Part shown: one piece after another, positions 1-58,524 of the stretch
How positions within the stretch are numbered: the first letter of the stretch is position 1
How the letters are laid out: every line of letters starts with the position of its first letter
Origin: Spirochaetota bacterium
GTDB taxonomy: Bacteria; Spirochaetota; UBA6919; CBDBPB01
NCBI GenBank assembly: GCA_965208615.1
Contig: CBDBPB010000002.1
Coordinates: 32,001-96,000 of the forward strand
Length of the DNA: 64,000 bases
Direction of reading: 5' to 3'
Notes under the pieces: model-generated
What the model was told of the DNA's origin: nothing
Databases searched by the model: none
What the model saw: only the letters and a program-made list of their open reading frames with translations
Translations under genes and position numbers: made by a program

Positions 1-124
1 TTATGGAAAAGAGCGTATTGAGTTAGTGTCTAAGAGAGGTATATTCACAGCGGATATTGATTATAATAGTGAGACAGGCATTGAGTTTACCAAGAAGGCT
101 AAAAACTACGCTGAGATTATATAG
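1..124 (+). CDS. cas3: C-terminal end of probable Cas3 helicase/nuclease (partial, runs off window)
   Basis: Frame 2 reads YGKERIELVSKRGIFTADIDYNSETGIEFTKKAKNYAEII*. The Y-x-S-x-x-G tail and position directly before cas4-cas1-cas2 fit type I-B gene order. Confidence 0.6.
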   Translation, partial: YGKERIELVSKRGIFTADIDYNSETGIEFTKKAKNYAEII

Positions 125-260
125 TTTTAGTCCTAATACCCACCGCCACAAGGTGGTGGCACAGCAAAGTGGGTACACCTAGTGGGATTTAAAGTTATTC
201 AAAGTGATAAATTTTGTCATTTTAGATAAAAGTTTTAGTCTCCAATAGTGGGGTTTAAAG
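124..260 (+). CRISPR. Degenerate CRISPR mini-array (2 repeats, one 37-nt spacer) between cas3 and cas4
   Basis: 232-260 GTTTTAGTCTCCAATAGTGGGGTTTAAAG has 2 mismatches to the array repeat. 124-194 is a repeat split by a ~42-nt insert (GTTTTAGTCCTAAT...TAGTGGGATTTAAAG). Spacer 195-231. Confidence 0.85.
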
Positions 261-271
261 GAGATTATATA

Positions 272-766
272 GTGACTTCTACTTATGTTACGGGCATACA
301 GGTTAATTATTATCATATTTGCCTTAGGAAGTTGTGGCTATTTTCTCATAACATACAGATGGAGCATAATAGTCAGGCAGTTAGTATGGGAAAGGTTATT
401 CATGACACGTTTTATAGGCGTAAGAGAAAAGAGATTAGGATTGAAGGCATAAAGATAGACTTTTTTGATGCTAAAAATGCTATGATCCACGAGGTTAAGA
501 AGTCGAGGGCAATGAGTGACTCTCACATTTGGCAAATGAGATATTATCTTTATTTTTTAAAAGGGCTTGGGGTTAATGTATCAGGCATGATTAACTATCC
601 GTTATTGAGAAAGAGAGAGAGGGTTGAGCTTAATAGCCAAGACATTGTCTATTTGGATAAGGTTTTATTAGATATACAGAGTATTGTGTCTAGGAGTAAT
701 ATACCAGAGGTTATTAACAAAAAGCTTTGTAAGAGATGTAGTTATTATGATCTTTGTTATGTTTGA
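272..766 (+). CDS. cas4: CRISPR-associated exonuclease Cas4
   Basis: TG..VNYYHIC.RKLWLF, EVKKS, Q..YYLY and C-terminal CxxCSYYDLC motifs. Likely start GTG272 after AAGGAG; the ORF-track start 248 lies inside the repeat. Confidence 0.95.
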   Translation: MTSTYVTGIQVNYYHICLRKLWLFSHNIQMEHNSQAVSMGKVIHDTFYRRKRKEIRIEGIKIDFFDAKNAMIHEVKKSRAMSDSHIWQMRYYLYFLKGLGVNVSGMINYPLLRKRERVELNSQDIVYLDKVLLDIQSIVSRSNIPEVINKKLCKRCSYYDLCYV

Positions 767-772
767 GGCACT

Positions 773-1759
773 ATGAGGGACTATTATATTTTTCGTTCTG
801 GACGATTAAGGCGTAAGGATAAGTCTTTGATGTTTATTTATATGGATGATGGGTCTAAAAGGTATAAGCCTATTCCCATAAAGGATGTGGACACTATCCA
901 TATTTTTGGTGAGATGGGTATAAACACAAAGCTCATTAACTTTTTATCTCAGAGGCGTATAGCTCTTCATATATTTAATTACTATGGATTTTATTCTGGT
1001 AATTTTTATCCTAGGGACTACTTAAATGCAGGGGATATTGTAGTAAGGCAGGTTAGTCACTATTTGGATTATGAAAAGCGATTATTTATAGCAAAAGAGA
1101 TGGTAAAGGGTGGGATTTATGGTATTATCAATAATTTAAAGCGTTATTTAGGGGATTGTGAGTTATTAGGTTCAGTTATTAATCTTGAGGATAGCATTGA
1201 TAAACAGGGTAAGATCCCCTCTCTTATGGGTATTGAGGGTAATATTCGTGATCTTTATTACAAGTCGTTTAATTACATAATAAAGCAGGACATTGATTTT
1301 AAAAAGAGGGTTAAGCATCCCCCTGACAACTGGATAAATGCCATAATATCGTTTGTAAATAGTTTGGTATACACAGAGGTTTTGAGGGCATTATATAGAA
1401 CACAGTTAAATCCTACGGTTAGCTATTTACACGAGCCATTTTACCGTAGATATTCTTTATCTTTGGACATAGCGGAGATATTTAAGCCAATACTGGGAGA
1501 TAGATTGATTTTTTCATTATTAAACAACAATCAGCTTAAAAAAAGTCATTTTGATAAGACATTAAACTTTAGTTATTTAAAAGAGCCAGGACGAAAGATA
1601 GTGGTTACGGAGTGGGATAAGAGGCTTAGGGACACGATTTACCATAAGCAGTTAAAGAAGAAAGTTAGTTACAGGCGTTTAGTTAGGCTGGAGGCATATA
1701 AGCTAATTAAGCATTTGTTAGGTGAGGAAGAGTATAAGAGTTTACGTATTTGGTGGTGA
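773..1759 (+). CDS. cas1: CRISPR-associated endonuclease Cas1, type I-B
   Basis: FNYYGFY, LMGIEG, R..HPPDN.INA.ISF.N, SYLHEP, SLSLDIAEIFKP motifs. Confidence 0.97.
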   Translation: MRDYYIFRSGRLRRKDKSLMFIYMDDGSKRYKPIPIKDVDTIHIFGEMGINTKLINFLSQRRIALHIFNYYGFYSGNFYPRDYLNAGDIVVRQVSHYLDYEKRLFIAKEMVKGGIYGIINNLKRYLGDCELLGSVINLEDSIDKQGKIPSLMGIEGNIRDLYYKSFNYIIKQDIDFKKRVKHPPDNWINAIISFVNSLVYTEVLRALYRTQLNPTVSYLHEPFYRRYSLSLDIAEIFKPILGDRLIFSLLNNNQLKKSHFDKTLNFSYLKEPGRKIVVTEWDKRLRDTIYHKQLKKKVSYRRLVRLEAYKLIKHLLGEEEYKSLRIWW

Positions 1760-1762
1760 ATT

Positions 1763-2044
1763 ATGTTTGTAATAGGAGCTTATGACGTATCAACAGTGGA
1801 CAAGGCAGGGAGAGCAAGGTTACCGAAGTTGATGAAGTTGATGAGGCAATATTTGCATCATAGTCAGAGGTCGGTTTTTGAGGGTGAGATAACAGAAGGA
1901 GATTTATTGGAATTACGTAAGTCCATTAATAAAATAATTAATAAGGATGAGGATTATGTAGTTATATTTAAGGTAGCCAACCATAAAAATGTAAAGCGAG
2001 AGAATCTTGGTATAGAGTTTGATCCTGGGGATGTAATAATATAA
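1763..2044 (+). CDS. cas2: CRISPR-associated endoribonuclease Cas2
   Basis: AYDV...R..K....L...Q.SVFEG motif; follows cas1. Confidence 0.95.
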   Translation: MFVIGAYDVSTVDKAGRARLPKLMKLMRQYLHHSQRSVFEGEITEGDLLELRKSINKIINKDEDYVVIFKVANHKNVKRENLGIEFDPGDVII

Positions 2045-2122
2045 AAAGCATGATTGGAGGTTTGGGAATAAATTTAAGAAATGGTATATATAATTATATG
2101 TTATATAATAATTTGTGGATGG
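2045..2122 (+). promoter_or_regulatory. Probable CRISPR leader
   Basis: AT-rich 78 bp between cas2 and the first repeat, containing TATAAT-like hexamers. Confidence 0.55.
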
Positions 2123-2347
2123 GTTTTAGTCGCCAATAGTGGGATTTAAAGATCGTGTATACTATTGCCTTCACTCAAATAATATATGGTTTTAGTCGCC
2201 AATAGTGGGATTTAAAGAGAGAATTGGATATTAAAACTTAGAACAATCATAGTGTTTTAGTCGCCAATAGTGGGATTTAAAGGATGTCTTCTTTGTCAAT
2301 AGTGTCTTTGCACATTTTGTTTTAGTCGCCAATAGTGGGATTTAAAG
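2123..2347 (+). CRISPR. CRISPR array, 4 identical 29-bp repeats, 3 spacers (37, 36, 36 nt)
   Basis: GTTTTAGTCGCCAATAGTGGGATTTAAAG at 2123, 2189, 2254, 2319. The 3' end ATTTAAAG resembles the canonical ATTGAAAG handle, suggesting + orientation. Confidence 0.98.
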
Positions 2348-2456
2348 GCAACATAGTTGCTTTTAAATAAGATAGATATATGCTATCTATATAAAGATTT
2401 AAAGCCAATACTGTTAAAACACAAATCAACTTATACTTTATAAAAACTAATAAATA

Positions 2457-2485
2457 TTGACCAACAATATAATATTAAATATCTT
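2457..2485 (+). promoter_or_regulatory. Putative sigma70 promoter for cbiG
   Basis: TTGACC-17bp-TATCTT. Confidence 0.45.
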
Positions 2486-2533
2486 TTCTTAAATCCCTTA
2501 TAATTGCCTCTCAATATCTATAATGGTACACCA

Positions 2534-3598
2534 ATGCACAAAATAGCAATCATAACTATAAATAATCCAGGACTAAACTCGGCTCTTAAACTACTAAATA
2601 TACTAAATACACATTATAAACCAGATAAAATTGCAGTCTTTTATAAAAAGGATAGCATAATTAACAATAACAAAAACCTAATCCCGTTCAATAACATAGA
2701 TGATATACTATCAGAGGCTTGGACTAACTTTAATATTATAATATGCTTTTTGGCAACCGGGATAGTCATTAGAAAAATAGCCCATAAGCTTAAATCTAAA
2801 ACATCTGATCCAGCAGTACTTGTTATGAGTTTCGACCTAACACAAGTTGTACCCCTAATATCAGGACATATAGGCGGTGCCAATGAGTTTGCACTAAAAC
2901 TAGAACGCATAATACCAAATTGTAAAAGCTTTATATCCACAGCTACAGACCAAACTAATGTATTCGCCTTTGATCTATTCGCAAAAGATCAAAACTTCAC
3001 AATAGAAAATATAAATAAATTAGCAGTTGTATCAAACCAACTCATTAATAATCAACAAGTTAATGTGTTTACTTATCCCACTATTTTTGAGCTAATAAAA
3101 AAGTATAAACAATATTCCAACAAAATTATATTTAAAAATATAGATGATGTTAATAATCAGGATAAGCCTTTATCAGTAAGCATATCCCCCTTTAATATAC
3201 AAAATCATAAACAACTTATAATCCGCATTCCCTCAATATATATTGGCATAGGACTAAATAAAAATACGCCTTTTAAGACTCTAATCAAGGCATTACACCT
3301 TTTTACTCTAGAACATAGCCTAAATATAAATGATATAACTAAAATAGGCTCATTCAAAGAAAAAGAAAATGAACCAGGTCTAAAAGAATTATCAGAACAC
3401 CTATCAATACCAATAACCTTTTTATCCGCAGATAGTATAAACTCTGTTGACTATAACTTATCCGATTCGGCAGCCAATAAGTTCTTTAATATAAAAGGCG
3501 TTGCTGAACCATCGGCTATTATAACATCCAAGCATAAAACCCTATTTCTAAAAAAACACTCCTATTTTAGAGAGGTAACCATAGCCTCTGCTTTTTAA
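2534..3598 (+). CDS. cbiG: Cobalt-precorrin-5A hydrolase CbiG
   Basis: ATGIVIRKIA..L.SK.SDPAV, SGHIGGAN, STATD, GVAEPSA motifs; ATG2534 preferred start. Confidence 0.92.
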   Translation: MHKIAIITINNPGLNSALKLLNILNTHYKPDKIAVFYKKDSIINNNKNLIPFNNIDDILSEAWTNFNIIICFLATGIVIRKIAHKLKSKTSDPAVLVMSFDLTQVVPLISGHIGGANEFALKLERIIPNCKSFISTATDQTNVFAFDLFAKDQNFTIENINKLAVVSNQLINNQQVNVFTYPTIFELIKKYKQYSNKIIFKNIDDVNNQDKPLSVSISPFNIQNHKQLIIRIPSIYIGIGLNKNTPFKTLIKALHLFTLEHSLNINDITKIGSFKEKENEPGLKELSEHLSIPITFLSADSINSVDYNLSDSAANKFFNIKGVAEPSAIITSKHKTLFLKKHSYFREVTIASAF

Positions 3599-46728: not shown

Positions 46729-48667
46729 AGTCGCCTGACTCACTTCTTGAGTCTTCATATTTATATGTATTACCAGCCTTGACAACCTTTCTATTACTTT
46801 TATCATCACCCGTTCCATAGGTTGCTTTGCCTTTTATGCTTGAATTATTATTATAAATAGCCCCGCCTTTGCCTTCTTTTTTATCTTCAATGCTACCAGC
46901 AATGTTTCCATTAAAAATCACATTACTAGTAAAAGTCACAGAGCTACCAATATTATACATGCCCCCTCCGTTATTAGAAGCCTTATTATTAGTAAAAGTC
47001 ACATCTGTTAACTTTGGAAACCCTGAAGCGTTATAATGATTATACATGCCCCCTCCAAGCTTAGCCTTATTTTCAGTAAAAGTCACATTTGTTAAAGTGG
47101 GCTTGCTATACCTCCAATTAATCATGCCCCCTCCAAAAATAGTAGCCGTATTGCCATTAAAAGTCACATTTGTTAACGTTGGAGAGCTATTCTCATTATT
47201 ATACATGCCCCCTCCGGACTGAGTAGCCGTATTGCCCTTAAAAGTCACAGTTGTTAAAGTGGGAGAGCTATTCTCATTATACATGCCCCCTCCAAACTTA
47301 GCCGTATTTTTAGTAAAAGTCACATCTTTTAATAACTTTGGAGAGCTCTTCGAATTATACATGCCCCCTCCGTTATTAGAAGCCTTATTATTAGTAAAAG
47401 TCACAGTTGTTAACTCTGGAGAGCTTTTATCATTATTATACATGCCCCCTCCGTTGCCCTGTATAATATCATCCGTTTTGGCCTTATTTTCAGTAAAAGT
47501 CACAGTTGTTAACGTTGGAGAGCTATTATTATTATACATGCCCCCTCCAAACTTAGCCGTATTTTTAGTAAAAGTCACATCTGTTAACTCTGGAGAGCTA
47601 TAATGATTATTATACATGCCCCCTCCATAATTAGCCGTATTGTCAGTAAAAGTCACATCTGTTAACTCTGGAGAGCTATAATAATTAAACATGCCCCCTC
47701 CTTGTTTGGCCGTATTGTCAGTAAAAGTCACAGTTGTTAACGTTGGAGAGCTAGTATTATTAAACATGCCCCCTCCGGACTGAGTAGCCTTATTTTCAGT
47801 AAAAGTCACATCTGTTAACGTTGGAGAGCTATTATTATTATACATGCCCCCTCCTTTATCTGTGGCCTTATTTTCAGTAAAAGTCACATCTGTTAACTCT
47901 GGAGAGCTATGATAATTATACATGCCCCCTCCTAAATCAGCCTTATTGTCAGTAAAAGTCACATCTGTTAACGTTGGAGAGCTATTATTATTATTATACA
48001 TGCCCCCTCCGTTATTAGTAGCCTTATTTTCAGTAAAAGTCACATCTGTTAACGTTGGAGAGCTCTTCTCATTATACATGCCCCCTCCTAAATTACGAGT
48101 ACCATTAGCATTGCCTTTGGTAATTATAACCCCTACTAACTTTGCAGTCTTATCTAGCTTTGCAGTAGCGGGATGATAAAAAACATTAAAGGCATCATCA
48201 CTATCATTGCCCTTTGTTCCAATATCACCGCTTAGGGTAGTCTTATGAGCTTTATGGTCATTACCCTCACCAACATTTTTACCAGGAAAACCCCCAATAA
48301 CCTCTACACCATTCCTTAATGAAAAATGCTTATGACGATCATTAGTACCTTTAGTTGGCTTACTAGTAGGCGTATAAGTCCCTTGGGCTACATATACCTT
48401 AACAGGTTTTTTAGTAGACTTAAACTTTTCTGAGGCTTTCTCAATACCCTCTTGTAGGTCACTATAAGCAGTTGTCCAAGATCTACCATTTTCAGTAGGA
48501 CGACGAGTTTTAGCTTCTTTTACAAAAACTCCTCCTACAGCACTTGGAATAGAGTTAGGAGAAGTAGGACTTATTACCTTACTAGCATCTTCCTCACAAC
48601 CAGCTCTAAGCATGGAAATACTAATTAATAGTATTATTAAAATGTTTAAATAACTTTTTTTTGTCAT
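46727..48667 (-). CDS. Pmp-like right-handed beta-helix repeat lipoprotein
   Basis: Lipobox LRAGC; about 15 GGGMYN..SSP.LT.VTF..N.A repeats (GGAI/FxxN type). Confidence 0.88.
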   Translation of the reverse strand: MTKKSYLNILIILLISISMLRAGCEEDASKVISPTSPNSIPSAVGGVFVKEAKTRRPTENGRSWTTAYSDLQEGIEKASEKFKSTKKPVKVYVAQGTYTPTSKPTKGTNDRHKHFSLRNGVEVIGGFPGKNVGEGNDHKAHKTTLSGDIGTKGNDSDDAFNVFYHPATAKLDKTAKLVGVIITKGNANGTRNLGGGMYNEKSSPTLTDVTFTENKATNNGGGMYNNNNSSPTLTDVTFTDNKADLGGGMYNYHSSPELTDVTFTENKATDKGGGMYNNNSSPTLTDVTFTENKATQSGGGMFNNTSSPTLTTVTFTDNTAKQGGGMFNYYSSPELTDVTFTDNTANYGGGMYNNHYSSPELTDVTFTKNTAKFGGGMYNNNSSPTLTTVTFTENKAKTDDIIQGNGGGMYNNDKSSPELTTVTFTNNKASNNGGGMYNSKSSPKLLKDVTFTKNTAKFGGGMYNENSSPTLTTVTFKGNTATQSGGGMYNNENSSPTLTNVTFNGNTATIFGGGMINWRYSKPTLTNVTFTENKAKLGGGMYNHYNASGFPKLTDVTFTNNKASNNGGGMYNIGSSVTFTSNVIFNGNIAGSIEDKKEGKGGAIYNNNSSIKGKATYGTGDDKSNRKVVKAGNTYKYEDSRSESGD

Positions 48668-48761: not shown

Positions 48762-50647
48762 TATTACTAATTGCTCTAGTAGTGTAGTTCAAAAGTATTT
48801 TAAGTTAGTTTATCTTTTTAAAACTTTCTAAAATGCAGATAAAATTTATTTATTAATTGTGTTATAATAATTTTTTATCTAAAAGCTATAGTAATTAGTA
48901 ACAGGGAGTATATCTTTTATTTTTTATGGTTTAGTATAAGAGGCCCTTATCAAGTTGAGGTTGTTGACAATGGGGATAAGCGTTTACGTTTAGACTTTGA
49001 GTTAGGGCTGGCAGGTATATTTATTTTTCTGTTAAGGTTAGGGAGAGTATAGCTTTTTTTTAATATTATGTTATTTAAATGATAAGAGGCCCTTATCAAG
49101 TTGAGGTTGTTGACAATGGGGATAAGCGTTTACGTTTAGACTTTGAGTTAGGGCTGGCAGGTATATTTATTTTTCTGTTAAGGTTAGGGAGAGTATAGCT
49201 TTTTTTTAATATTATGTTATTTAAATGATAAGAGGCCCTTATCAAGTTGAGGTTGTTGACAATGGGGATAAGCGTTTACGTTTAGACTTTGAGTTAGGGC
49301 TGGCAGGTATATTTATTTTTCTGTTAAGGTTAGGGAGAGTATAGCTTTTTTTTAATATTATGTTATTTAAATGATAAGAGGCCCTTATCAAGTTGAGGTT
49401 GTTGACAATGGGGATAAGCGTTTACGTTTAGACTTTGAGTTAGGGCTGGCAGGTATATTTATTTTTTGTTAAGGTTAGGGAGAGTATAGCTTTTTTTTAA
49501 TATTATGTTATTTAAATGATAAGAGGCCCTTATCAAGTTGAGGTTGTTGACAATGGGGATAAGCGTTTACGTTTAGACTTTGAGTTAGGGCTGGCAGGTA
49601 TATTTATTTTTCTGTTAAGGTTAGGGAGAGTATAGCTTTTTTTTAATATTATGTTATTTAAATGATAAGAGGCCCTTATCAAGTTGAGGTTGTTGACAAT
49701 GGGGATAAGCGTTTACGTTTAGACTTTGAGTTAGGGCTGGCAGGTATATTTATTTTTCTGTTAAGGTTAGGGAGAGTATAGCTTTTTTTTTAATATTATG
49801 TTATTTAAATGATAAGAGGCCCTTATCAAGTTGAGGTTGTTGACAATGGGGATAAGCGTTTACGTTTAGACTTTGAGTTAGGGCTGGCAGGTATATTTAT
49901 TTTTTGTTAAGGTTAGGGAGAGTATAGCTTTTTTTTTAATATTATGTTATTTAAATGATAAGAGGCCCTTATCAAGTTGAGGTTGTTGACAATGGGGATA
50001 AGCGTTTACGTTTAGACTTTGAGTTAGGGCTGGCAGGTATATTTATTTTTTGTTAAGGTTAGGGAGAGTATAGCTTTTTTTTAATATTATGTTATTTAAA
50101 TGATAAGAGGCCCTTATCAAGTTGAGGTTGTTGACAATGGGGATAAGCGTTTACGTTTAGACTTTGAGTTAGGGCTGGCAGGTATATTTATTTTTCTGTT
50201 AAAGTTAAAGGGATATTATTTAATAATTCAGTTGTCATTTTATGACAAAGTTATGACGAGGGATACAAGGCAAAAGGAAGACATATAACGTAAAGGCAGA
50301 TAGATTTTAGATTCCTTTGTGGAACAGGAAAGTTAAGATATTCATGGAAAAGTTATTTTCCTATGTCAAGCAGGTTATCTCTACATGCTCTTTAAGTGCT
50401 GCTTAAATGCCTTAGTAATTAACACAAAATATCACTTTTTATGCAAGTAGTCATCATTACGGGAGCTATTAAGAATCCCTTACTGAGACTAAGGATTAGA
50501 GACCCTTATTAAGTGTTAACGGATTCGCCTTTCCATAAAGGCGTAGAGCAGATTATTTAAATATTACATGTTGACGTTATGTGTAAAACCTCGAAAAGTA
50601 TACCTAATCCTCTATGATAAATAACAATCATAAAAAGTAAACTACTA
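48762..50647 (+). repeat. Dispersed non-coding element, copy B (contains the tandem array)
   Basis: 48762-49040 and 50210-50592 match copy A; 50210-50647 matches copy C inverted. Confidence 0.92.
48936..50202 (+). repeat. Tandem array of 145-147-bp units, 8 complete plus 1 partial
   Basis: Units start at 48936, 49082, 49228, 49374, 49519, 49665, 49812, 49958, 50103; they differ only in TTTTTCT/TTTTTT and T8/T9. Confidence 0.98.
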
Positions 50648-56748: not shown

Positions 56749-58524
56749 ATGCTAAAAACTAAGAGTTATTTGAAACTTTTAACAACACTATTAATTAGTT
56801 TATCACTATTTAGCTGTGATAATAATGCGGTTAATGAGGCATTAGGTGATAAAAATACCAGTGCCATAAAAACTGCAAAGGTAAAAGAAGATAAATCTAC
56901 TATAAAGGGTTATATACTAGGGGGAGTGCATGTAAGAGCTAATGCAAATGCTGGAGGTGATGGATCAACTTGGCAAAAAGCTTTTAATGACCTTCAAAAG
57001 GCTATTGATAAAGCTAAAAAAGATGGGGGCATAGTATATGTTGCTCAAGGGACTTATAAGCCTAATAGCCATCCCAACGGCGGTAGCGGGGAACGTAATA
57101 AACATTTTGCCTTACGAAATAATGTAGTAGTCATTGGGGGATATACCACTAACCGCGATAAACGGGATAAGGATCCTACTAAGACTATTTTAACTGGTGA
57201 TCTTGGTAATACAAGGGTACTTAATGTTTTTTATAATAAGGGTTTAAATAAAACTTCAAAGTTGAAGTACTTTACTATTACTAAGGGCAAGGCTGATGGT
57301 GCTAATAAGGGCAGTGGAGGGGGTATGTATAATGATAATAGCTCTCCAAGTTTGATAAGCATTAACTTTGAGGGTAATGAGGCTAAAAATAGTGGTGGAG
57401 CTATTTATAACAGTAATAGCACTTCAAATTTAATAAGCGTTAATTTTAAGGATAATAATGCTAAAAACGGTGGGGCAATGTATAATGCTAATAAAAGCTC
57501 TCCAAAGATAGTCAATTCTAGGTTTAATAATAATACGGCTGAAGATGGAGGGGGCATGTATAATGATAATAGTTCTCCAAAGTTAATGTACAGTTATTTT
57601 ACTGGTAATAAATCTATCAGTAATAACTGGCAAATAGGAGATGGAGGAGGGGGCATGTATAATAATAATAGTAAACCTATTTTATTAGGCATTAGTTTTA
57701 CTAATAATACGGCTAAATATAGGGGAGGGGGCATGTATAATTATAGTAATAGCTCTCCCACTTTAATAGATGTGGAGTTTAATAGTAATACGGCTAGAAA
57801 GAATGGAGGGGGCATGGCTAATGGTAATAGCTCTCCCACTTTAACAAATGTGAAGTTTACTAATAATACGGCTACATATTACGGAGGGGGCATGTATAAT
57901 ACTAATAGCTCTCCCACTTTAGAAAATGTGACTTTTAATAGCAATTCGGCCACATGGGGAGGGGGCATGCATAATTGGAAAAGCTCTCCCACTTTAACAA
58001 ATGTGAAGTTTAATAGCAATTCGGCCCCATGGGGAGGGGGCATGTATAATACTAATAGCTCTCCCACTTTAGAAAATGTGACTTTTGAGAGTAATACGGC
58101 TACATATTACGGAGGGGGCATGTATAATACTAATAGCTCTCCCACTTTAAAAAATGTGAAGTTTAATAGCAATTCGGCCCCATGGGGAGGGGGCATGTAT
58201 AATACTAATAGCTCTCCCACTTTAGAAAATGTGACTTTTGAGAGTAATACGGCTACATATTACGGAGGGGGCATGGTTAATTATAATAATAGCTCTCCCA
58301 CTTTAGATAATACGGTGATTTTTAATAAAAACATTGCTGGTAGTGTTGCTAATAGCCAAATAGGCGAAGGCGGGGCTATTTATAATGTTGTTGGTTCTAG
58401 ATATGGTCCTGACTCAAGAATAATAGGCACACCAACCTATGGAACGGGTGATGATGAAAATAAAAAGGTTATCAAAGTGGATAATACATATAAACTTGTA
58501 AAGTCAAACCTTGAGTCAGGCTAA
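56749..58524 (+). CDS. Pmp-like beta-helix repeat lipoprotein
   Basis: Lipobox LFSC; same N-domain as the 48667 gene; about 13 GGGMYN..SSP.L..V.F..N.A repeats; internal duplication with 153-bp period (57982/58135). Confidence 0.88.
   Translation: MLKTKSYLKLLTTLLISLSLFSCDNNAVNEALGDKNTSAIKTAKVKEDKSTIKGYILGGVHVRANANAGGDGSTWQKAFNDLQKAIDKAKKDGGIVYVAQGTYKPNSHPNGGSGERNKHFALRNNVVVIGGYTTNRDKRDKDPTKTILTGDLGNTRVLNVFYNKGLNKTSKLKYFTITKGKADGANKGSGGGMYNDNSSPSLISINFEGNEAKNSGGAIYNSNSTSNLISVNFKDNNAKNGGAMYNANKSSPKIVNSRFNNNTAEDGGGMYNDNSSPKLMYSYFTGNKSISNNWQIGDGGGGMYNNNSKPILLGISFTNNTAKYRGGGMYNYSNSSPTLIDVEFNSNTARKNGGGMANGNSSPTLTNVKFTNNTATYYGGGMYNTNSSPTLENVTFNSNSATWGGGMHNWKSSPTLTNVKFNSNSAPWGGGMYNTNSSPTLENVTFESNTATYYGGGMYNTNSSPTLKNVKFNSNSAPWGGGMYNTNSSPTLENVTFESNTATYYGGGMVNYNNSSPTLDNTVIFNKNIAGSVANSQIGEGGAIYNVVGSRYGPDSRIIGTPTYGTGDDENKKVIKVDNTYKLVKSNLESG

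Follow-up and report, generated by a model that had tools for sequence, protein, structure and literature searches.

Within a complete type I-B CRISPR-Cas operon of a Spirochaetota bacterium, a single repeat-spacer-repeat unit lies between the cas3 stop codon and the cas4 ribosome site (positions 124-260 of the window, that is, of the whole 64,000-nt stretch of DNA analyzed here). It consists of two repeat-derived sequences, psiR1 and psiR2, on either side of a 37-nt spacer, psiS; a short perfect direct repeat brackets the block, and the spacer closely matches DNA of the host's own chromosome. We propose that Cas6 continues to cut this array-derived, host-directed unit, dividing the operon transcript and freeing a guide without a tuned target. 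The proposal is drawn from sequence, and we give it about an even chance of being right. It ranks ahead of a regulatory guide, an inert scar, and a function residing in the spacer's palindrome, in that order.

The window spans C2:32001-96000 of a 2.46-Mb genome (31% G+C, nine contigs; hereafter G000), and two DNA contig runs match the stretch at the unit without differences, one of them (run X2) over window positions 1-168 only. The operon, which we call locus 1, runs cas6-cas8b-cas7-cas5-cas3-cas4-cas1-cas2 and is followed by a leader and array. Upstream of the window start are cas6, cas8b/Cst1, cas7/Cst2, cas5b, and a full-length cas3 (C2:29881-32124, 747 aa, HD and helicase; NCBIfam cas3_core 1.3e-71, cas3_HD 7.3e-17), the 3' end of which occupies positions 1-124 on the + strand and closes with the stop codon TAG at 122-124. 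Beyond the unit, on the same strand, come cas4 (272-766; TIGR00372, 1.6e-20) with a GTG start at 272, type I-B cas1 (773-1759; TIGR03641, 1.3e-127), and cas2 (1763-2044; TIGR01573, 1e-11). The 78-nt leader of the resident array (2045-2122, + strand) contains the 18-nt motif GGAGGTTTGGGAATAAAT, which also stands in the leader ahead of a second array on contig C1. The resident array itself (2123-2347, + strand) holds four identical 29-nt repeats, GTTTTAGTCGCCAATAGTGGGATTTAAAG, with exact copies at 2123, 2189, 2254, and 2319, and three spacers of 36-37 nt.

The layout given in a preliminary description of the unit is borne out by this analysis. The first repeat does begin on the final base of the cas3 stop, with G124 serving both as the end of that codon and as the first base of GTTTTAG; no leader precedes it, the cas3 coding sequence directly abutting psiR1. 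The 8-nt 5' handle at 187-194 on the + strand, ATTTAAAG, is intact, agreeing in every base with the 3'-terminal 8 nt of the array repeat, and psiS is a full-length 37-nt spacer (195-231, + strand), exactly as quoted there. The claim that two diverged copies of the array repeat flank this spacer calls for amendment on one side. It is accurate for psiR2 (232-260, + strand), which matches the array repeat at 27/29 positions, the two changes (G10T and A22G) keeping or improving its hairpin. On the other side, psiR1 (124-194, + strand) is 71 nt long and amounts to an array repeat with a large insert, some 42 extra nucleotides in its loop. The repeat-derived parts of psiR1 are its first 9-15 nt and its last 15 nt (TAGTGGGATTTAAAG, 15/15), so that the outer stem and the 3' end are kept. 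The insert (139-180, + strand) is GC-rich, at 62% G+C relative to 31.5% for the window, forms an 8-bp G+C hairpin (stem arms 140-147 and 152-159, -16.9 kcal/mol), and is unique, with no other genome copy longer than 12 nt. In the predicted fold it sits in the hairpin loop, with the normal outer stem of the repeat retained around it.

The likeness of these sequences to the repeat is not a product of chance, as judged by its rarity in the genome. When up to 7 mismatches to the repeat were allowed, a scan of the whole genome returned only the four array copies and psiR2, and the terminal 15-mer of psiR1 occurs only in the array and in psiR1, with psiR2 carrying it at one mismatch. Likewise, psiR2 is 4 or more mismatches away from the most frequent repeat in each of 10 related arrays (11 related loci were examined and a repeat was found in 10; locus L006 gave none). 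These comparisons support the derivation of the unit from the resident array. The RNA of psiS is predicted to fold into a 15-bp hairpin (-8.7 kcal/mol), and the fold of 187-260 is more stable than that of any of 200 shuffles (z = -4.0).

Flanking the unit is a perfect 13-nt direct repeat, GAGATTATATAGT. Its left copy (113-125, + strand) comprises the last cas3 codons and the stop, and its right copy (261-273, + strand) supplies the cas4 ribosome-site spacing and the first bases of the start codon. The cas4 Shine-Dalgarno sequence, AAAGGAG (257-263, + strand), is formed jointly by the end of psiR2 and the right copy, 8 nt before the GTG. Only these two copies of the 13-mer exist in 2.46 Mb, with 0.42 expected anywhere, and the bases flanking them differ. 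A perfect short direct repeat at both ends is what a target-site duplication leaves; features of the transposon type (another genome copy of the unit, terminal inverted repeats, or a transposase) were not found, and the ends of the unit are direct CRISPR repeats. Removal of the 148-bp step would leave the cas3 stop and the cas4 start overlapping by one base. In 8 of 10 related I-B loci the distance from cas3 stop to cas4 start is -4 to +15 nt, the exceptions being L010 (a 191-nt gap) and the nearest relative, G001 (a 367-nt gap). The flanking repeat, taken together with abutting genes in 8/10 relatives, identifies the unit as a discrete insertion. Its limits agree with the outer repeat ends to within two bases, so it was pasted as a block. 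There is also microhomology with the array, between the cas3 end and the junction of the first spacer and second repeat, which would fit a template switch during replication, although this is speculation. Integration by Cas1-Cas2 is expected to duplicate a repeat-length stretch, unlike the 13 bp seen here.

Relatives were gathered by searches based on Cas4. Hits came from 8 of the 61 genomes of the phylum sample, G000 included (best relative G001, at 60%), from three loci in genome_contigs (39-49% identity, among them a Brachyspira match), and from one locus in metagenome_contigs (48% identity); the phylum sample searched contains no genome of the same family. By the pattern of these relatives and the Brachyspira match, the bacterium probably branches deeply within the spirochaetes. 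The comparison of cas3-cas4 junctions that the preliminary description recommended gave no sign of a conserved position: the unit is present in 0/10 related I-B loci, a weak test given that the closest Cas4 is only 60% identical. The 367-nt gap of G001 contains no repeat-like sequence and shows no homology on alignment with the locus-1 junction. It does hold two copies of a dispersed hairpin/palindrome of that genome's own (L006 1130-1160 and 1395-1425; G001:C53:13113-13390), an element unrelated to the psiS family and present in 36 copies at up to 3 mismatches in the G001 genome (control, 0).

On sequence comparison, the spacer is host-derived rather than foreign. In a BLAST search of the unit against 401 phylum-sample genomes, G000 included, the only match besides the unit itself and related arrays was C8:54995-55029 (91%, E = 2e-7). 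An ungapped scan aligns psiS with C8:55031-54995 at 33/37 positions, with mismatches at spacer positions 2, 10, 30, and 31. Similarity ends at the spacer borders, with 0/11 matches upstream and 5/12 downstream, giving the spacer-length, spacer-bounded identity to the host chromosome that marks a self-derived spacer. As a control, the nine ordinary spacers in the two arrays of this genome were scanned likewise; away from its own site, none of them matches the genome at more than 27 of 36-37 positions. The putative PAM position of the C8 match reads TCA, and TCA is a PAM of some clostridial I-B systems. Read on its other strand, the C8 palindrome matches psiS at 28/37, with spacer positions 1-9 exact and a flank of TTT. 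The preliminary description had named an ordinary array relic, recognizable by a phage or plasmid match, as the alternative; nothing of the sort emerged from phage, plasmid, or viral-contig searches. The unit and the whole array had no significant match in the INPHARED phage collection (best for the unit, E = 0.009 over 29% of the query), the best plasmid-collection match was E = 0.2, and an exact scan of IMG/VR for the 25-nt palindrome gave 0 matches. The C8 site lies 78 nt after ptsI and has no recognized promoter or RNA family, and Rfam returned no family at E up to 1 for either window 1-3000 or the C8 site. About 230 nt from the C8 palindrome is a lysine-rich 71-aa ORF (L045 2763-2978; C8:55262-55477), in the long A+T-rich interval that separates ptsI from a murA/aroA-type gene (Pfam EPSP_synthase).

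The C8 site is one member of a larger set. The core of psiS belongs to a genome-specific family of 23-25-bp palindromes, CAAAATGAYAAAWTTTRTCATTTTG, and its 23-nt core (201-223, + strand) has 0 mismatches to AAARTGAYAAAWTTTRTCAYTTT; by this fit, by its intergenic place, and by its multi-copy character psiS qualifies as a member. The family numbers 19 sites at up to 2 mismatches (for example, C4:258897, C8:55003, C3:131387, C7:153992, and C9:43898) and about 24 by nhmmer, where psiS scores E = 6e-4. At up to 1 mismatch there are 13 sites in this genome, compared with 0 in each of 40 relatives and 0 for a reversed control. Seventeen of the 19 sites fall outside ORFs of at least 100 aa, in convergent (such as C4:258897 and C9:82299), tandem, and divergent gaps alike, and no common theme was found among the neighboring genes. 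Most copies carry one fixed asymmetry, a T:G mismatch between the arms. The family could be REP-like or an operator. The flanks of psiS agree with the C8 copy only, at 5/6 and 6/8 flank bases, and it is on this account that the C8 copy, or a lost sister of it, is taken as the source.

Three of the roughly 19-24 family members are in cas loci, and two of these stand 76 and 114 nt after a cas3 stop. The locus that accounts for the more distant one is a second type I-B system of the Csh/TM1802 type (G000 C1:340772-348640; L032 1673-9540), here called locus 2. It begins with cas6 on the minus strand, followed by a palindrome copy, a promoter-like block, and the leader; an array of seven repeats, GTTTAACCGTACCTATAAGGAATTGAAAC, then lies between the divergent cas6 and cas8b, and the remainder comprises cas8b/Csh1, cas7/Csh2, cas5h, cas3'', cas3', and, 114 nt later, another palindrome copy. 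The cas3 of this locus is split into HD and helicase ORFs, and cas1, cas2, and cas4 are absent from it. With a leader motif common to both loci, the two arrays may depend on the single Cas1-Cas2-Cas4 set. The array and effector module is bracketed by direct repeats of 51 nt (L032 2517-2567 and 9505-9555), which are 88% identical and each contain a palindrome. A 45-nt promoter-like block is likewise duplicated at 91% identity, before the array (L032 2619-2663) and before cas8b (3313-3357). A 13-nt likeness between the end of the locus-2 repeat and the flank of the post-cas3 palindrome was set aside, having reached p = 0.02 in one of 12 tests. The palindrome copies of locus 2 would be an odd coincidence if the content of the spacer were irrelevant, which counts against the reading that we favor, and the presence of three family members in cas loci, two of them just behind a cas3, is the main reason that rival readings are kept open.

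How the unit might be expressed and processed can be set out stepwise. We suggest that a repeat-spacer-repeat block of the resident array was copied into a cas3/cas4 junction that formerly abutted, duplicating 13 bp of it; thanks to that duplication neither the cas3 stop nor the cas4 ribosome site was lost. The spacer of the block would have been captured from the host chromosome, as a copy of the dispersed intergenic palindrome, the nearest surviving copy being C8:54995-55031. On the + strand there is no promoter-like site in 100-270 and no terminator-like site in 1-2600. Placed inside an operon and having neither signal itself, the unit is expected to be carried on the cas6-cas8b-cas7-cas5-cas3-cas4-cas1-cas2 transcript. 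The preliminary description had called it a regulatory guide co-transcribed with these genes; we infer the co-transcription as well, and part company over the regulation, no target having been found in the cas promoter regions. One antisense promoter-like match (291-264) was discarded because such matches are as frequent in the region as in shuffled sequence (12 vs 12.7).

The pattern of repeat decay fits continued Cas6 processing. The last 8 nt are kept in psiR1 (8/8) and altered in psiR2 (7/8); conversely, the first 21 nt are nearly intact in psiR2 (20/21) and broken by the insert in psiR1. Of the two psiR2 changes, G10T affects a base that is not constant in the natural repeats of this family. 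A22G alters the base with which the downstream tag begins; it lies outside the predicted RNA of the unit, and the commonest repeats of the 10 related arrays all have A there. A divergent degeneration of this form, with the 5' handle kept in psiR1 (last 8 nt) and the 3'-handle part in psiR2 (first ~22 nt), is the pattern given for creA genes with two psiR in the account of PMC8501985. Since psiR1 retains the base of the stem and the last 15 nt, and psiR2 retains 20 of its first 21 nt, Cas6 most likely cuts both, with predicted cuts at about 186/187 and 252/253. The product would be crRNA-like: a 37-nt guide that folds on itself, preceded by the 8-nt handle and followed by a 3' handle of 21 nt. 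Such cutting would also leave the effector genes and cas4-cas1-cas2 on separate mRNAs. The guide itself would be tolerated because the one host site that it matches at length has seed mismatches, at positions 2 and 10. We therefore picture the unit as a domesticated or merely tolerated self-directed element, the main present effect of which, if any, would be punctuation of the operon transcript. Two considerations temper this reading: the 42-nt insert might abolish Cas6 recognition of psiR1, and the small number of substitutions in the repeat parts (2/44 nt) may mean that the unit is young rather than selected.

The strongest rival is that of a working CreR/CreA-type guide, in which the RNA loads into the locus-1 Cascade, parks it without cleavage on a host site, and represses a neighboring gene or locus 2; its candidate sites would be the C8 palindrome (in the + strand reading with positions 1-9 exact and flank TTT) or seed-only sites. 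Several features are as such a guide would have them. Cognate repeats flank one spacer-like segment with no leader; the repeats have decayed as in two-psiR creA genes; the 5' handle is unaltered; the spacer has its full length and is directed at the host, matching C8 on both strands; and palindrome members stand beside the array and cas6 promoter region of locus 2. The target searches, however, speak against it. Regulation of this type is defined by seed pairing next to a PAM in a cas or toxin promoter, and according to the account in PMC8501985 each of spacer positions 1-5 and 7-11 is essential in haloarchaeal I-B CreA. No such pairing was found here. In the locus-1 cas6 promoter region, where the preliminary description had advised a search for a partial match to the spacer seed, there is no seed-plus-flank match (the best is 9/10 with position 2 wrong; alignment p = 0.08), and no target was found in the cas promoter regions of either locus. 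The same description had likened the unit to CreR-type regulators, a function for which these searches gave no promoter target. Nor is there room for a toxin gene as in CreTA, all 147 nt between the cas3 stop and the cas4 start being repeat, spacer, or duplication; the sole antisense ORF at the junction (23-178, 51 aa) has no Shine-Dalgarno sequence and was dismissed.

The remaining candidate sites fare little better. At C8, position 10 is mismatched on both strands and position 2 also on the better strand, and the site, downstream of ptsI, has no recognized promoter or RNA family. The locus-2 palindrome mispairs at seed positions 1, 2, 6, and 10. The exact 10-nt seed (positions 1-5 and 7-11) has 80 genome sites, 37 of them intergenic, a count consistent with chance, so any seed-only target is indistinguishable from chance and such candidates are uninformative. 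When 13 seed positions are required, psiS has 7 sites including itself; at least that many were found in 202/5000 whole-spacer shuffles and 12/5000 seed shuffles, and a single repeat accounts for 4 of the 6 non-self sites. A four-copy seed match (TTAGG flank, 14 of the first 15 positions) was rejected as lying in a tandem intergenic repeat and within chance. In addition, the guide folds on itself and the unit is conserved in no relative examined. A nearly complete host match that fails in the seed has the look of a spacer that escaped self-targeting, and is the opposite of seed-only pairing. On balance, we judge a working regulatory guide of this type possible but unlikely.

The unit may instead be an inert scar, a pasted block that is transcribed, has lost Cas6 recognition, and owes its survival only to the duplication, which left cas3 and cas4 unharmed. 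The large psiR1 insert, the lack of conservation in relatives, and the negative target searches are all in keeping with such a scar. Against it, every lesion is at a position dispensable for a crRNA-like product, a distribution less expected of free decay, though youth would explain it too. We regard the scar as improbable, and somewhat behind the regulatory guide.

A further reading places the function in the palindrome itself, at the DNA or RNA level, with copies favored behind the cas3 of each I-B locus and the CRISPR repeats only a delivery vehicle. The palindrome might then bind a protein, act as a roadblock, or form a weak hairpin that ends or stabilizes a transcript. The intergenic bias of the family, its confinement to this genome in the comparison with 40 relatives and the reversed control, and the three sites in two cas loci would all be expected, and the cas3-cas4 gap of G001 likewise has two copies of its own unrelated palindrome. 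Yet psiS is among the more diverged members (nhmmer score 21, compared with 22-31 for most) and carries G at one core position, at which A predominates in the other members and T makes up the rest. The neighboring genes have no common theme, the mix of convergent, tandem, and divergent gaps is as expected of random intergenic placement, and the stem is A+U-rich, without a proper U tract, and called as no terminator-like site. This reading seems to us more doubtful still than the scar.

Least probable, and in our view very unlikely, is a trans-acting guide with the host's dispersed palindromes as its targets, including the two that bracket the locus-2 array and effectors; were it true, one CRISPR system would sense, mark, or regulate the other, or police a REP-like element, and repeat-spacer-repeat blocks could copy and paste with 13-bp duplication, giving birth to regulatory mini-arrays.

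The unit that we favor as Cas6-cut and without a tuned target invites comparison with several described systems. In the accounts of CreA/CreR (Cheng et al. 2021, PMC8501985; Liu et al., bioRxiv 10.1101/2023.03.10.532045), as here, two repeat-derived sequences and one spacer lie in an I-B cas operon with no leader, the first repeat holding the 8-nt handle and the second the 3'-handle part, and the spacer is related to host DNA, not virus. As far as those accounts go, the differences are that CreA/CreR lies around cas6/cas8 and our unit between cas3 and cas4; that ours has no seed-plus-PAM match to a cas or toxin promoter and no toxin gene; that its repeats are barely degenerate except for one large loop insert; that its host match is near full length (33/37) with a broken seed, whereas CreA/CreR pair by seed only; and that it is flanked by a 13-bp duplication. 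Mini-arrays are reported in about 19% of bacterial I-B loci, with sporadic ones elsewhere in the loci, and the repeat-like sequences of I-B loci, like the long gaps, are concentrated near cas6, the promoter of which contains the targets (Shmakov et al. 2023, bioRxiv 10.1101/2023.03.03.530964 = PMC10120712). Our unit resembles these standalone repeat units in being a repeat-like mini-array outside the array of a type I-B locus; a cas3-cas4 position, a duplication signature, and a host-palindrome spacer are not among the features described in the portions of PMC10120712 consulted, and two supplementary PDFs of that study make no mention of cas4 or I-B. A literature search on Cas6, repeat-like sequences, and processing of cas-operon mRNA likewise yielded no cas3-cas4 unit like this one by title or abstract, although supplements to the 2023 preprints may list some. 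The mini-array is thus of a known kind; what is unusual here is its position, its legible insertion signature, its loop insert, and its host-repeat spacer.

Self-targeting spacers with degraded neighboring repeats were reportedly described by Stern et al. in 2010 and read as tolerated autoimmunity. Our unit is similar to those self-spacers in its host match, mismatched seed, altered flanking repeats, and apparently intact interference genes, and differs from them in standing outside the array, inside the operon, and in having a multi-copy palindrome as its source. A literature search for self-targeting spacers derived from repetitive extragenic palindromes found none.

These features bear on how such elements arise. 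The origin of regulatory mini-arrays is mostly guessed; here the birth event can still be read, as a block, a 13-bp duplication, and a host source that can be named. We suggest that the unit represents a concrete early stage between an accidental self-spacer and a domesticated guide, and it indicates that a spacer-like segment in a cas operon can copy a host repeat element rather than viral memory. If Cas6 cuts the unit, this operon would offer a natural example of effector and adaptation messages separated by CRISPR repeats.

Finally, the genome has other repeats, some of them within the window. An intergenic tandem repeat of long period (130-165 nt), with 8.7 copies at 99% identity, occupies window positions 48936-50207. 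Others of this kind are found at C3:160800-161400, C1:11100-11450, and C7:292156-293357, and the block GTTAAGGTTAGGGAGAGTATAGCTT is common to several of these long-period families. Two further window regions, 47039-48095 and 57722-58305, contain diverged repeats with a 75-81-nt period in about 5-8 copies each, on opposite strands, and these look like coding repeats of large surface proteins.
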